From Escherichia coli (GTDB lineage Bacteria; Pseudomonadota; Gammaproteobacteria; Enterobacterales; Enterobacteriaceae): a DNA stretch of 64,000 nucleotides. The stretch lies in NCBI RefSeq assembly GCF_041886205.1, contig NZ_CP169029.1; one strand, written 5' to 3'. Under the pieces are notes generated by a model. The model was not told where the DNA came from, made no database searches, and was given only the letters and a program-made list of their open reading frames with translations. Below, piece after piece: positions 47,119-53,261 of this stretch. The translations under genes were made by a program, and so were the position numbers. How positions within the stretch are numbered: the stretch's first letter is position 1; each line of letters opens with the position of its first letter.

Positions 47119-49380
47119 TTACATCTGACGGTTTTTATTGAAGTTAATCAAACTACCCGCCTTGATAATCTCGCGCTCTTCAGCAGTCAGACTTTCCATA
47201 TAGAGCGTAATCTCCGTTACCGGCGCATCTTCATGGATCACATAACCTTTAAACGTCGTACCCGGATTATCCAGCGCCGCTTTAATGCCAGGGATGTAAA
47301 TGTAATCCCCCACTTCAAAGGTTGGCGCTTCCGCCATCTGCAGCGGTAACATCCCCCAGTTGATGACGTTAGAACGGTAGCGTTTAGTCGCGTACTCCTC
47401 GGCAATATTCGCCAGACCGCCAATCACACGCTGGCAGCTCGCCGCCTGTTCACGCGCAGAACCATCGCCTGGTTTCACCGCATAGACCATGCTGCCAATT
47501 TCAGTTTGCAGCGGATCAATATGCTCCTGACCAGCAATCTGCTTAATGCGCGCAAACACCTCTGTCAGCTCGCTGACATTCCCCGCCAGACGCTGATTTT
47601 CCAGCTCAGCAGTCGCTTTACTTCTGCCAACATAACCGGGATCGCGGCGAGACAGGGTAAACTCCGCCAGACCAATCGGATTTGAACGATAAGAAGAGGT
47701 TTCACCGGAAGGAATCAGTTCGTCGGTGGTGGTCACTTCGTCGAGGATCTTCGAGCACACTTTGAGGACGATATTGTCAGTCAGCGCACCCAATTCCGGC
47801 CAGTCTTTAATGTTCGGTCCGTAAATCAGCGGTTGCTGAGTTGCCCCTTTCACAAAGCCCTGATAAACACGGTTTTTATACGGCGTTACATCGAAGGCGT
47901 ACTCCGGCACGTTGTCCCAGCAATCAAGTTCGCTGGCAGAAGTTAAATAGCCACCGTTTGCCGCAGTCGCAGCGATAGAACGAGCGTCCATCAACGCCAC
48001 CGCTGACATCTGCCCATTGGCTGGCTTAGAGCCTTCGCGATTCGGGAAGTTACGCGTGGTGTGGCGAATACTCAAACCGTTGTTGATTGGCGTATCGCCC
48101 GCGCCAAAGCATGGGCCGCAGAACGCGGTTCTGATGATTGCGCCTGCGCCAATCAAATCTGCTACCACACCTTTTTTGGCGAGATCCATAAACACCGGCT
48201 GTGATGACGGGTAAACCGCTAACGAGAAGGTGTCATTGCCACAGGATTGACCGCGCAGTGCGTTCGCCGCCGCGATGACGTTTTCGTAGTTACCGCCAGA
48301 ACAGCCCGCGATAATCCCCTGCTGCACTTTCAGGCGACCATTTTCTACTTTATCCAGCAGCGAGAGTTTGGCTTTACCGTGCGCCACGCGTTCGGACTCA
48401 ATTTCAATCTCACGCAGAATGTCGATCAGGTTCTGGTTCAGTGTGTCGATTTCATACACGTTGCTCGGATGGAACGGCAGCGCAATCATTGGTTTGATGG
48501 CGCTTAAATCAACGCTGATGCAACCATCGTAGTACGCCATCGGTTGTGGATTAAGCTGGCAATAATCCTGGCCGCGACCGTGCAGCGCCAGCCAGTTATG
48601 CACTTCTTCATCGGTTTGCCAGACAGAACTTAAACAGGTCGTTTCAGTGGTCATAACGTCAACGCTGTTACGGAAATCGGTAGAGAGCGCAGCAACACCG
48701 GGTCCTACGAATTCCATCACTTTGTTTTTGACGTAGCCGTTTTTGAACACGGCACCGATGATAGCCAGCGCCACATCCTGCGGCCCCACATACGGCGCTG
48801 GTTTTCCGGTCAGATGCACCGCAACCACGCCCGGATAGTCGATATCCCAGGTGTCATTCAGCAGCTGTTTTACCAACTCACCGCCGCCCTCACCGACTGC
48901 CATTGTCCCTAATGCACCGTAACGGGTGTGGCTGTCTGACCCGAGGATCATTTTGCCGCCGCCTGCCATCATCTCACGCATATATTGATGGATGACCGCA
49001 ATGTGCGGAGGCACAAAAATACCGCCATAACGCTGAGCCGCCGATAAACCAAAAACATGGTCATCACCGTTAATGGTGCCACCGACGGCGCAAAGTGAGT
49101 TATGGCAGTTGGTCAGCACATACGGCAGCGGGAAACGTTCCATACCGGACGCTTTAGCGGTCTGTACAATACCAACAAAGGTAATATCGTGAGAGGCTAA
49201 TGAATCAAACTTAATTTTAAGTTTATCCATATTTCCGGACGTATTATGAGAAGAGAGAATAGACCAGGCAATAGTGCCTTTTTGGGCTTCTTCTTTTTTA
49301 ATTTGGCCGGTGAAATGTTCTTCGGCAATTATTTCGTTATTACTGGCGAGAAACACGCCTTTTTCAGATAACTTGATCAT
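47119..49380 (-). CDS. ybhJ: aconitase-family protein YbhJ
   Basis: about 753 aa, aconitase catalytic and swivel domains. Confidence 0.85.
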
Positions 49381-49562
49381 TAAATGCTCCAGATATCTGC
49401 GCACCGTGAAGTGCGCAGAAAGATAATAAATGGATATACTCTAAATAATTCGAGTTGCAGGAAGGCGACAAGCGAGTGAATCCCCAGGAGCTTACATAAG
49501 TAAGTGACTGGGGTGAGCGAACGCAGACGCAGCACATGCAACTTGAAGTATGACGAGTATAT

Positions 49563-50996
49563 TTACAGCATGTTCCAGCCGATCAGCATATTCCACCACC
49601 ATACGCCGAGGGTGATATGCACCAGGAAGGTTAATATCGTCAGTACCGCACCGACCAACCACCAGGATTTAATATCGTTGTAACCCACGCCAAAGATGAC
49701 CGGACCTGCCGCGCCGCCATAATGAGTAACCATGCCGCCATAGGAGTTGGAGAACAACAGTGCCAGCGCGGTTAACATTAACGGTGCGCCGGAGACGTTC
49801 GCCAGCATGGCAAATACCGGTAACATAGCAACGATATAGGCACTACCGGAAGCGAAGAAATAACGCACGATGATGCTGAGGAAAATAATAACGAAGAAAG
49901 CAACGTTACCGTGACCATCAAATGCCAGGTTATTTTTAAAGACTTCAGCTAACCATTCGAAAAATTTAACTTTCGATAATAAGGAGCTTAAGCCGATAAT
50001 ACCGCCGTACCAGATTAAGGTATTCCAGCCGCCTTTATTTTTAACCACGTCTTCCCAGGTAACGATACCCAGCAGCAGCATGGTCGCCATAACAACGATT
50101 GCCACAGTGGATTCATCAACCCCCAGAGACTTACTGAAAATCCAGCCCAGTAGCGCCAGCACAAAGACACCGAGCAGCATTTTTTCGCGGATTTTCATCG
50201 GTCCCAGTTCGGCAAGGCCCGCTTTGGCGATGGTTTTGTTATCCACCTTCTTAATTTCTGGCGGATACATGGTATAAATCACCAGCGGGGTGACCAGCAG
50301 CATAATGATGCCCGGCAATCCGGCGGCCAGTGCCCATCCACCCCAGCTAATTTGCAGGTGCAGAATGTCGTTGATCATTTTCAGCGCCAGAATGTTCCCC
50401 GCCATTGCGGTAAAGAACATATAGCTGGTGGTTTTGGTGACCATGTAAATGGACATCATCAGGTAATGTCCGACACGACGCGGACTTTTTTCCGGTTCGG
50501 ACCCCAAAGCCACCGCCACGCTGTTGATGATCGGTAACACAATGCCGCCCGCACGCGCGGTGTTAGACGGTGTTGCCGGAGCCAGTACCAGATCGAGGAA
50601 TACCGTAACGTAACCCAGACCCAGCGTGGTGTTACCGATTTTACCAATCAGCAGATAGGCAATACGTTTACCTAAACCGGTGGTCACAAATGCGGCGCTT
50701 AAGGTAAACGCCGAGAACACCAGCCAGGTAGTACCTGAAGAGTAACCGCTTAATACGGCGGTGGTCTTAAACGCACCGTCGGATAAGTTACCGACCACCA
50801 CCATTGAGGCAGCAACGGCAATTAACAGTACGACAGGTTCCGGGAAAGGCTTGATAACCAGACCCACAATGGCCGCCAGGTAAATACCAAAAAGCACCCA
50901 CGCCAGTTCGCTTAATCCTGCCGGAGCTGGCATAAAACCAATAATACATGGGATCGCTAATATCAGAATTAGCTTCCATAACGATTTCTTATTCAT
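49563..50996 (-). CDS. ybhI: DASS-family anion transporter YbhI
   Basis: 477 aa polytopic membrane protein. Confidence 0.8.
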   Translation of the reverse strand: MNKKSLWKLILILAIPCIIGFMPAPAGLSELAWVLFGIYLAAIVGLVIKPFPEPVVLLIAVAASMVVVGNLSDGAFKTTAVLSGYSSGTTWLVFSAFTLSAAFVTTGLGKRIAYLLIGKIGNTTLGLGYVTVFLDLVLAPATPSNTARAGGIVLPIINSVAVALGSEPEKSPRRVGHYLMMSIYMVTKTTSYMFFTAMAGNILALKMINDILHLQISWGGWALAAGLPGIIMLLVTPLVIYTMYPPEIKKVDNKTIAKAGLAELGPMKIREKMLLGVFVLALLGWIFSKSLGVDESTVAIVVMATMLLLGIVTWEDVVKNKGGWNTLIWYGGIIGLSSLLSKVKFFEWLAEVFKNNLAFDGHGNVAFFVIIFLSIIVRYFFASGSAYIVAMLPVFAMLANVSGAPLMLTALALLFSNSYGGMVTHYGGAAGPVIFGVGYNDIKSWWLVGAVLTILTFLVHITLGVWWWNMLIGWNML

Positions 50997-52124: not shown

Positions 52125-52307
52125 AATAATGCCCTCAATTTAAAAACATAACTTATTGCGATATGGTTACATTAAGGACAAAGCATCTCTAATGACTTTA
52201 GCTCAACGATTAATAACTTTTTTTCATTAATTTAAGTTGGCTAAATGCAGTTAAAATTTTTAACGACCAGCCACCCAAAATCATCGCTTCCATTTTCCGG
52301 AGTAATA

Positions 52308-53261
52308 ATGAAGCATGAATTATCAAGTATGAAGGCATTTGTCATACTGGCAGAGTCCAGTTCATTTAACAATGCCGCTAAATTACTCAATATTACGCAA
52401 CCTGCATTAACGCGAAGAATAAAAAAGATGGAGGAAGATTTACATATTCAACTATTTGAGCGTACAACTCGCAAGGTTACGTTAACAAAAGCAGGAAAAA
52501 GGTTGCTCCCGGAGGCGCGGGAATTAATAAAGAAATTCGATGAAACGCTTTTTAATATTCGTGATATGAATGCTTATCATCGTGGTATGGTGACGTTAGC
52601 GTGTATTCCGACCGCAGTATTTTATTTTTTACCGCTGGCAATCGGTAAATTTAATGAGCTGTATCCCAATATTAAAGTGCGGATTCTGGAACAAGGCACG
52701 AATAATTGCATGGAATCGGTGCTGTGTAACGAATCAGACTTTGGCATAAACATGAACAACGTCACAAATTCATCCATTGATTTTACCCCACTGGTCAACG
52801 AGCCATTCGTGCTGGCCTGTCGGCGTGACCATCCATTGGCCAAAAAGCAGCTTGTAGAATGGCAGGAGTTAGTGGGTTACAAAATGATTGGCGTACGTTC
52901 CTCCAGCGGCAACCGATTGTTGATAGAACAACAGCTAGCCGACAAGCCCTGGAAGCTGGACTGGTTTTACGAAGTGCGTCATCTTTCGACGTCATTAGGA
53001 CTAGTGGAGGCAGGACTGGGGATTTCGGCGCTTCCTGGTCTGGCAATGCCCCATGCGCCCTATTCTTCGATTATTGGTATCCCACTGGTGGAACCCGTTA
53101 TACGTCGGACATTGGGGATTATTCGCCGCAAAGATGCCGTGCTTTCTCCGGCAGCTGAACGCTTTTTTGCCTTGCTGATTAATTTGTGGACTGACGATAA
53201 AGACAATTTGTGGACCAATATCGTCGAACGCCAGAGACATGCGTTACAGGAGATAGGTTAA
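52308..53261 (+). CDS. ybhD: LysR-family transcriptional regulator YbhD
   Basis: N-terminal LysR HTH (..FNNAAKLLNITQPALTRRIKKMEE..), divergent from ybhH; start at MKHELSSMKAF. Confidence 0.8.
   Translation: MKHELSSMKAFVILAESSSFNNAAKLLNITQPALTRRIKKMEEDLHIQLFERTTRKVTLTKAGKRLLPEARELIKKFDETLFNIRDMNAYHRGMVTLACIPTAVFYFLPLAIGKFNELYPNIKVRILEQGTNNCMESVLCNESDFGINMNNVTNSSIDFTPLVNEPFVLACRRDHPLAKKQLVEWQELVGYKMIGVRSSSGNRLLIEQQLADKPWKLDWFYEVRHLSTSLGLVEAGLGISALPGLAMPHAPYSSIIGIPLVEPVIRRTLGIIRRKDAVLSPAAERFFALLINLWTDDKDNLWTNIVERQRHALQEIG

Follow-up and report, generated by a model that had tools for sequence, protein, structure and literature searches.

The question raised by the ybhJ-ybhI-ybhH-ybhD locus of Escherichia coli is what substrate an aconitase-family protein, an anion transporter, an allylic isomerase and a LysR-type regulator could be handling together. 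We addressed this question in a 64,000-nucleotide stretch of E. coli DNA (contig NZ_CP169029.1 of RefSeq assembly GCF_041886205.1; hereafter the window). Three genes lie head-to-tail on the minus strand: ybhJ (47119..49380), encoding a 753-aa aconitase-family [4Fe-4S] (de)hydratase, ybhI (49563..50996), encoding a 477-aa DASS-family anion transporter, and ybhH (51072..52124), encoding a 350-aa cofactor-free 1,3-allylic isomerase of the PrpF/LigU family. On the plus strand, ybhD (52308..53261) encodes a 317-aa LysR-type regulator of the divergent operon and is followed by pgl, ybhA and modC. We propose that ybhD and ybhHIJ constitute a substrate-inducible catabolic module with trans-aconitate as the substrate, a reading to which we assign a probability of about 0.5; the general scheme of import, allylic isomerization and aconitase-type hydration of a tricarboxylate we regard as likely. 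A first-pass annotation, made from the nucleotide sequence, had placed a co-oriented aconitase-family protein, DASS transporter and PrpF-type isomerase opposite a LysR gene, and these families and orientations are borne out by Pfam and NCBIfam matches, by the coordinates and by the RefSeq annotation, which lists the identical four genes in the same order. Its description of the locus as poorly characterized is apt for function and misses that a YbhH crystal structure and YbhD regulatory data already exist.

The ybhD/ybhHIJ cluster is part of the E. coli core genome: of 5426 complete genomes, 5316 contain at least 80% of the 6.4-kb region. The ratio of nonsynonymous to synonymous substitution rates (dN/dS) is 0.02-0.03 for all four genes relative to E. 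albertii and 0.03-0.09 across the four relative to Citrobacter; the genes look functional on the E. albertii values, and all four evolve under strong purifying selection. In Klebsiella aerogenes and Edwardsiella the four genes also stay together at differing positions in the chromosome, and their order is kept at three chromosomal locations. In K. aerogenes the module is directly beside the citS-oadGAB / citAB / citC citrate-fermentation locus, and a second transporter (CitMHS family, 420 aa; locus L002, 8683-9945) is positioned between the ybhI and ybhJ homologues. Citrobacter and Enterobacter likewise carry YbhJ homologues.

YbhJ matches the catalytic domains 1-3 of aconitase (PF00330; E=6e-88, aa 49-478), the swivel domain (PF00694; E=2.5e-6) and the NCBIfam model PRK11413 'hydratase' (1539 bits). 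Comparison with mitochondrial-type aconitase (PDB 5ACN and related structures) reveals a shared domain order of 1-2-3-4, a shared size of about 750 aa and a common catalytic apparatus. The cluster ligands Cys358/421/424 of the mitochondrial enzyme align with YbhJ Cys360/421/424, which are invariant in active family members, and the catalytic Ser642, His101/147/167, Asp165 and Glu262 are retained as Ser641, His93/131/151, Asp149 and Glu246. All four substrate arginines (mitochondrial Arg447/452/580/644) are present as Arg443/448/565/643, including the equivalent of Arg580, which holds the third carboxylate. The differences lie elsewhere: identity to aconitases, including E. coli AcnA and AcnB, is only about 25-30%, a family-specific NCHNSLC motif replaces the aconitase Asp100-His101 region, and residues are exchanged at Asp100 (Cys92 in YbhJ), Asn258 (Val), Ser643 (Ala) and Asn446 (Thr), several of them in the second shell. 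YbhJ has its own NCBIfam model, PRK11413, and scores far below the AcnA, AcnB and AcnD cut-offs.

Enteric sequences filled the output of a word-index protein search with YbhJ, and other phyla were reached by a representative-library search, which indicated a small family, and by a scan of one genome per species in which open reading frames (ORFs) were called in the loci, neighbors clustered and the clusters identified. The best matches outside Enterobacterales (66-74% identity in the genome scan) came from strictly anaerobic gut bacteria, namely Lachnospiraceae, Enterocloster, Hungatella, Megasphaera, Collinsella and Synergistales, and identity of about 70% across phyla implies that the gene has probably been exchanged horizontally. 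About eight loci are operons of a YbhJ homologue with citrate synthase and isocitrate dehydrogenase (L017, L019, L020, L026, L027, L044 and L046, with a divergent arrangement in Megasphaera); in another context the homologue is paired with isocitrate dehydrogenase, and in five loci (L021, L035, L060, L056 and L012) it forms an operon with the citrate-lyase genes citD/E/F(/G/C). Two Lachnospiraceae-type loci (L016 and L064) have the order LysR/CitMHS transporter–PrpF–YbhJ homologue–citDEFGC, and a third (L057) has transporter–PrpF–YbhJ homologue–cit genes with no adjacent LysR gene and is cut off after citE. NCBIfam models confirmed the neighbors as NADP-isocitrate dehydrogenase (644 bits, cut-off 335), citrate synthase (587 bits, cut-off 426), CitG and citrate-lyase ligase. 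In the YbhJ tree these operon contexts are intermixed and the enterobacterial proteins form one sister clade, and the simplest reading is that the family may have a single activity, aconitase, wherever citrate and isocitrate meet. Because the catalytic features are kept and the homologues adjoin citrate synthase, isocitrate dehydrogenase or citrate lyase, YbhJ is probably a true aconitase that interconverts citrate, cis-aconitate and isocitrate.

YbhH matches the PrpF family (PF04303), whose fold is diaminopimelate-epimerase-like, over its full length (aa 1-350; E=3e-168) and is 100% identical, in 350/350 residues, to PDB 6OTV, deposited as 'putative isomerase YbhH'. The catalytic residues of the related isomerase LigU are Lys66 and Cys100, in agreement with the K66M variant among the PDB sequences; this crystal variant marks the position with which YbhH Lys59 aligns, and YbhH Cys93 aligns with Cys100. 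The Lys and Cys pair is invariant in both the YbhH clade (clade A) and the LigU clade (clade B). RefSeq names YbhH '4-oxalomesaconate tautomerase' because it passes the cut-off of NF033377 (OMA_tautomer; 515 bits against 440). Identity is 55-59% to non-enteric relatives within its own clade, 45-50% to LigU and 42% to the probable TbrA. In a neighbor-joining tree built without bootstrap, the YbhH clade is sister to the LigU clade, and the probable TbrA, the PrpF-domain gene product preceding a DMT transporter on plasmid pCT281 of Bacillus thuringiensis CT-43, branches outside both. The residues that separate the two clades proved uninformative as a match to TbrA, which agrees with clade A at two and clade B at three of nine fixed differences.

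Genomic context also separates the two clades. We sampled YbhH relatives by tblastn on annotated plasmids and megaplasmids and read their neighborhoods. The relatives at 55-59% identity (Providencia, Rhizobium, Phyllobacterium and Azospirillum) each have a divergent YbhD-like LysR gene, and all except the Providencia plasmid copy have an adjacent transporter, of the ABC or DctA type where the enterics have DASS; no further pathway enzymes were found beside them apart from a MaoC-family dehydratase gene at the Azospirillum copy. The relatives at 45-50% identity from Klebsiella pneumoniae, Azospirillum, Sphingomonas and Agrobacterium each adjoin a 4-carboxy-4-hydroxy-2-oxoadipate aldolase gene, often together with protocatechuate 4,5-dioxygenase, and a Pseudosulfitobacter relative (48.6%) is located behind a tripartite tricarboxylate transporter, near tcuAB. 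The aldolase is thus present in 4/4 clade-B loci with neighborhoods examined, and the eight YbhH-clade loci (the window cluster and seven others) are devoid of LigK, LigJ and ring-cleavage dioxygenase genes. Both types coexist in strains of Azospirillum brasilense, where each copy has a context of its own. YbhD shares 47-54% identity with the LysR proteins that accompany YbhH-clade isomerases in Providencia, Azospirillum and Rhizobiaceae, and only 22-28% with those of the Firmicute loci.

We conclude from these comparisons that ybhD and ybhH have long been inherited together and that the transporter alongside them can be exchanged. Because such a module consists of a regulator, a transporter and one isomerase with no further enzymes, it suggests that the product of the YbhH-clade isomerase is already a central metabolite, a description that cis-aconitate fits and the LigU product does not. 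The name '4-oxalomesaconate tautomerase' is probably wrong for YbhH, because the constant partner of its clade is a YbhD-like LysR gene, next to a transporter that can vary, and the LigK aldolase never accompanies it. NF033377 would then name two clades with different contexts, of which the LysR/transporter-linked one is probably misnamed across many enteric and rhizobial genomes.

The transporter and the regulator are consistent with such a module. YbhI matches Na_sulph_symp (E=7e-195) and, over its full length, the DASS subfamily model TIGR00785 (554 bits against a cut-off of 199); it is about 34% identical to the tartrate/succinate antiporter TtdT and 35.7% identical to the spinach 2-oxoglutarate/malate translocator (PMC9068703 supplement). 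YbhD has an N-terminal HTH_1 and a LysR_substrate domain and a divergent target, with a T-N11-A dyad in the intervening spacer. This ybhH/ybhD control region (52125..52307, 183 bp) contains a candidate YbhD operator at 52210..52230, the perfect LysR-type dyad TTAAT-N11-ATTAA, and the dyad recurs, perfect or with one mismatch, in the corresponding spacers of E. albertii, Citrobacter, Edwardsiella and the Providencia plasmid. Chromatin immunoprecipitation with exonuclease digestion identified one YbhD site in the control region, and RNA sequencing of a ybhD deletion mutant revealed strong up-regulation of ybhH (PMC9068703). Scanning of the divergent spacer, including a relaxed scan, uncovered no good sigma-70 -35 element for ybhH, and a relaxed scan found no Nac box (ATA-N9-TAT) there; sigma-70 promoter and terminator scans gave no more hits than in shuffled sequence. 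A terminator scan found no convincing intrinsic terminator between ybhH, ybhI and ybhJ, and a single ybhHIJ transcript is therefore plausible, with the absence of a terminator as the reason for including ybhJ with ybhHI.

trans-Aconitate is a major acid of grasses and cereals and reaches the gut. What is established is the family of each gene product, the catalytic residues, the order of the genes, their conservation, their surroundings in other genomes and the published repression of ybhH by YbhD; from these we infer the substrate, the direction of transport, an operon that includes ybhJ, and the effector as follows. YbhI, a DASS protein like CitT and TtdT, would bring in trans-aconitate, or an acid closely resembling it, and may give out succinate in return. 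YbhH would move a proton across the allylic system by means of Cys93 and Lys59, converting trans-aconitate to cis-aconitate, and YbhJ, a [4Fe-4S] aconitase of the gut-anaerobe type, would hydrate cis-aconitate to citrate or isocitrate, a product that would enter the tricarboxylic acid cycle or, anaerobically, pass to citrate lyase. YbhD, bound to the candidate TTAAT-N11-ATTAA operator, would keep the operon off until an effector, presumably the substrate, is present.

Four considerations make trans-aconitate the best candidate. It is the known substrate of tarR–tarAB, a system with the same architecture (PMC11495376); its conversion to citrate and on to oxaloacetate is documented in a gut anaerobe (PMC3035267); Lachnospiraceae operons place PrpF and a YbhJ homologue directly before citrate lyase; and isolates of Citrobacter, Enterobacter and Providencia assimilate and grow on it (PMC11495376, PMC13188880). 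A dedicated aconitase could moreover be useful because trans-aconitate inhibits ordinary aconitase (PMC11495376). The suggestion in the first-pass annotation of tricarboxylate uptake followed by isomerization and hydration receives partial support from the comparative evidence: the gene families and orientation agree with it, the four genes travel as a unit in K. aerogenes and Edwardsiella, and the YbhJ-homologue operons, the YbhH clade and the derepression of ybhH (PMC9068703) all back it. Itaconate, which was also named there, has no specific support as a substrate.

The closest known system is tarR–tarA–tarB of Bacillus velezensis FZB42 (PMC11495376), which likewise groups an isomerase of the PrpF superfamily and an importer with a divergently encoded LysR regulator and delivers its product straight into central metabolism. 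A TarA homologue of about 40% identity is listed for Shigella (PMC11495376 Table S6) and is presumably YbhH. The two systems differ in that YbhH apparently belongs to another clade than TarA, TarB is an MFS protein to which the DASS protein YbhI is a functional analogue at best, TarR is an activator whereas YbhD behaves as a repressor in the published mutant, and the ybh module adds YbhJ as a probable dedicated aconitase. A second relative is LigU/GalD, the (4E)-oxalomesaconate Δ-isomerase of protocatechuate 4,5-cleavage and gallate degradation (PDB 6P3H/J/K), which resembles YbhH in fold and length, is 45-50% identical to it and uses a Lys/Cys pair conserved in YbhH to carry out a suprafacial 1,3-proton shift on a substrate that is an aconitate analogue. 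YbhH differs in belonging to a separate clade without LigJ, LigK, GalB, GalC or dioxygenase neighbors and with a YbhD-type LysR gene and a transporter instead. The pairing of a PrpF-family isomerase with an aconitase-family hydratase recurs in AcnD/PrpF and, as a further case, in Mii/DmdAB. AcnD–PrpF of the 2-methylcitrate cycle (Shewanella, Pseudomonas; PMC5690661) resembles the proposed ybh module in acting on an aconitate-type tricarboxylate and differs in its specific families (YbhH scores 187 bits against the PrpF cut-off of 440, and YbhJ 63 bits against the AcnD cut-off of 1420), in its prpC/prpB neighbors, which are absent at the ybh cluster, and in that the ybh transporter marks an external substrate. 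Finally, PMC3035267, citing Härtel & Buckel 1996, describes a biochemically documented conversion of trans-aconitate to citrate, oxaloacetate and pyruvate by the gut bacterium Acidaminococcus fermentans. The predicted route from trans-aconitate through cis-aconitate to citrate and the gut habitat are shared with the ybh module, and aconitase-family genes adjoin citrate/MatC-type carriers and citrate lyase as in the Lachnospiraceae YbhJ-homologue operons. The genes for the isomerase and aconitase steps of that fermentation have no experimental assignment; E. coli encodes its citrate lyase away from the ybh cluster and has an isomerase from a different clade.

Several observations weigh against trans-aconitate as the substrate. 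E. coli already has AcnA and AcnB, and a third aconitase needs justification, possibly to be found in the inhibition of AcnA and AcnB by trans-aconitate or in anaerobic conditions. Blank, Green and Guest reportedly found in 2002 that ybhJ does not explain the residual aconitase activity of acnAB mutants, a result that a repressed ybh operon would explain. The Firmicute PrpF proteins adjoining YbhJ homologues belong to a different, Mii-like clade, and the PrpF–YbhJ parallel there is one of analogy rather than orthology. In sequence YbhH is nearer to LigU than to TbrA, the sole proven aconitate isomerase retrieved, and it passes the OMA_tautomer cut-off. A Providencia rettgeri strain able to grow on trans-aconitate is the source of AI-79, whose activity in vitro was below 1% of that of TarA (PMC11495376, Table S4); AI-79 ends in GDVYVP, a YbhH-like C-terminus that makes it a probable YbhH-type enzyme, and its forward primer starts at the RGGTSK motif, such that the construct seems to be about 9 N-terminal residues short. 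The growth phenotype of the ybhD mutant is with L-malate and Nac, a nitrogen regulator, controls ybhHI (PMC9068703); neither points to aconitate. Our literature search on ybhH/I/J/D found one paper on the cluster (PMC9068703), which gives no function, no data on induction or growth of E. coli with trans-aconitate, and no experiment linking a Ybh protein to aconitate.

The alternative that survives best retains the same logic with a different unsaturated acid, such as a homo- or methyl-substituted aconitate or another plant or microbial tricarboxylate without a database family. We consider it rather unlikely, and it gains from the separateness of the YbhH clade from the characterized LigU, TbrA, PrpF and Mii, from the second-shell changes in YbhJ, from the near-inactivity of AI-79 (PMC11495376) and from metagenomic loci in which a YbhJ-like protein occurs with two more aconitase paralogues, PrpF and Iso_dh, a hint of complex substrates. 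Yet a protein about 70% identical to those of citrate synthase–isocitrate dehydrogenase operons, as YbhJ is, would be expected to act on citrate, cis-aconitate and isocitrate themselves, and the YbhH clade is mostly without downstream enzymes, so its product should be a central metabolite.

Reversal of the pathway is improbable. In such a route the module would make and export, or dispose of, trans-aconitate, with YbhJ converting citrate to cis-aconitate, YbhH isomerizing it and YbhI exporting the product, as TbrA/TbrB do in B. thuringiensis. In its favor, TbrA, the closest aconitate isomerase with proven activity, has an exporter as its partner, the isomerase can work in either direction, a dedicated aconitase before the isomerase would be sensible in a biosynthetic route, and secretion of trans-aconitate has been reported for Citrobacter, Enterobacter and Providencia isolates (PMC13188880). 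The direction of transport in related systems argues otherwise: YbhH-clade relatives use ABC systems with a substrate-binding protein, normally importers, and the DASS relatives CitT and TtdT serve uptake. The Firmicute operons moreover tie PrpF–YbhJ to citrate lyase, which is catabolic, and a divergent LysR gene facing an operon is a classic catabolic layout.

Slightly less probable again is that YbhH is a 4-oxalomesaconate isomerase of the LigU/GalD type and that the cluster handles gallate or protocatechuate ring-cleavage products from gut microbes, with YbhJ replacing LigJ. The chemistry would be the same, oxalomesaconate being a keto-extended aconitate analogue, and the NF033377 score, the identity to LigU and the retention of both catalytic residues agree with it. 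Set against this are the tree and the neighborhoods: all examined LigK/GalC-adjacent homologues are in the separate clade with LigU (itself placed by its PDB sequence, its context not examined), 0/8 YbhH-clade loci contain LigK, LigJ or a ring-cleavage dioxygenase, A. brasilense keeps both types in separate contexts, and YbhJ is 70% identical to context-defined aconitases. The least credible alternative, that the genes are neighbors without a common pathway (YbhI, for example, being a malate/2-oxoglutarate carrier for L-malate use and ybhJ being transcribed separately), draws on the L-malate phenotype of the ybhD mutant, on the naming of only ybhH and ybhI as YbhD targets (PMC9068703) and on the 182-bp repeat-bearing spacer between ybhI and ybhJ, and it is opposed by the gene order kept at three chromosomal locations, the spacers without a terminator, the recent origin of the repeat, the equal purifying selection on the four genes and the recurrent pairing of the two enzyme families.

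That repeat is a complete ERIC/IRU element (49435..49561, minus strand) filling the ybhI-ybhJ spacer. It contains the exact ERIC1R primer sequence at 49476-49497 and folds as RNA into a long imperfect hairpin (z = -7.9), and a 158-bp spacer query containing it had a median of 11 matching places per E. coli genome. The element is also present in the E. albertii locus and absent from the other 97 loci fetched, including those of Citrobacter, where the ybhI-ybhJ spacer is about 64 bp, Edwardsiella and Klebsiella. Because among these loci it occurs only in E. coli and E. albertii, we conclude that it is, on this distribution, a recent Escherichia-specific insertion into an older, shorter spacer inside a probable operon. 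A GC-rich hairpin (CTGCGCAC...GTGCGCAG; 49394..49417, minus strand) is located just upstream of the ybhJ Shine-Dalgarno sequence and has no T-run after it. The spacer between ybhH and ybhI (75 bp) contains a perfect palindrome of 10 bp, TTCTGTATGA-N-TCATACAGAA (51011..51033), which is AT-rich and, as judged by its sequence, not convincing as a terminator; it resembles a LexA-type CTGT...ACAG box with a 9-nt spacing instead of 8. Palindromic repeats at 46979..47118, between the convergent ybhJ and ybhC, which we take from their consensus to be REP-like, are the probable 3' end of the ybhHIJ transcript. An Rfam scan of 44-56 kb of the window gave no match.

Two gene starts proposed by the ORF finder were rejected on profile coverage and Shine-Dalgarno position. 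For ybhJ the finder chose GTG 49404 (raw ORF 47119-49404), which falls within the GC-rich hairpin according to sequence and RNA fold; PRK11413 matches aa 9-761 of the raw ORF and a GGAG is upstream of ATG 49380, and YbhJ is therefore 753 aa long. For ybhD it chose ATG 52245 (raw ORF 52245-53261); the helix-turn-helix begins at aa 27 of the raw ORF and ATG 52308 has a GGAG upstream, and YbhD is therefore 317 aa long.

The YbhJ family also yielded observations of separate interest. Some E. coli strains have a 634-aa YbhJ with in-frame loss of residues 418-536 (window 47773-48129), a likely null allele, since two substrate arginines are lost along with two of the three cysteines that bind the Fe-S cluster; 5375 of 5426 complete E. 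coli genomes retain the segment. Published deep sequencing reported a cis-antisense small RNA of about 66 nt, ECS012, opposite the ybhJ coding region (PMC3175480). The UniRef name '2,3-dimethylmalate dehydratase', attached to one Edwardsiella YbhJ homologue, was rejected, as that enzyme has two subunits and no nicotinate-pathway genes are nearby. Two full-length metagenomic proteins with 37-38% identity to YbhJ (P0148 and P0156) lack the catalytic serine and the DSH motif as well as all three cysteine ligands of the cluster and may be non-catalytic paralogues; having no cluster cysteines, they were excluded from the YbhJ search profile. In loci L006 (metagenome) and L051 (Clostridium sp.), two or three paralogues of the aconitase family are clustered with PrpF, a dehydrogenase of the Iso_dh family and a LysR gene, which suggests an undescribed multi-step tricarboxylate pathway in anaerobes.

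Other observations concern individual strains and the flanking DNA. In Edwardsiella tarda (L001, 8483-9915) ybhI is in two overlapping ORFs of 230 and 260 aa with no gene called and is likely a frameshift pseudogene, with ybhH, ybhJ and the LysR gene intact. In E. coli strain ET201, IS621 (IS110-family) is annotated inside the ybh region and listed between ybhH and ybhD; should it sit in the control region between these divergent genes, YbhD would no longer govern the operon. The cluster had been described as intact next to a prophage, and this is indeed the arrangement: the genes are intact and the lambda att core GCTTTTTTATACTAA is at 45634-45648, between a lambda-type int (44490-45560) and ybhC, about 1.5 kb from the end of ybhJ. 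A second exact copy of the core is at 25693-25707. With the cores only about 20 kb apart, the prophage at attB is far shorter than lambda and hence presumably defective.

The cluster itself, the YbhH structure and the YbhD regulatory study were already known; what is new is the functional assignment, which would fit the kinds represented by the Tar system and AcnD–PrpF. The module is not a new kind of system, as it recombines known enzyme families in a known logic. Somewhat more tentatively, E. coli and its relatives may possess a third, true aconitase of the housekeeping kind found in strictly anaerobic gut Firmicutes, acquired by horizontal exchange inside the gut and joined to a proteobacterial regulator–isomerase pair as a chimeric operon for dietary trans-aconitate, a plant acid poisonous to ordinary aconitases, and the label '4-oxalomesaconate tautomerase' may hide a large clade of aconitate-type isomerases among enteric and rhizosphere bacteria. 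trans-Aconitate can be reduced to toxic tricarballylate, which is relevant to ruminant nutrition. Four conserved genes of the best-studied bacterium now have a testable hypothesis that names a substrate, an enzyme order, an effector and an operator. If true, it would correct the propagated NF033377 'oxalomesaconate tautomerase' misannotation, add a third aconitase and a new carbon source to metabolic models of E. coli, and provide a genetic basis for the use of trans-aconitate by gut and plant-associated bacteria.

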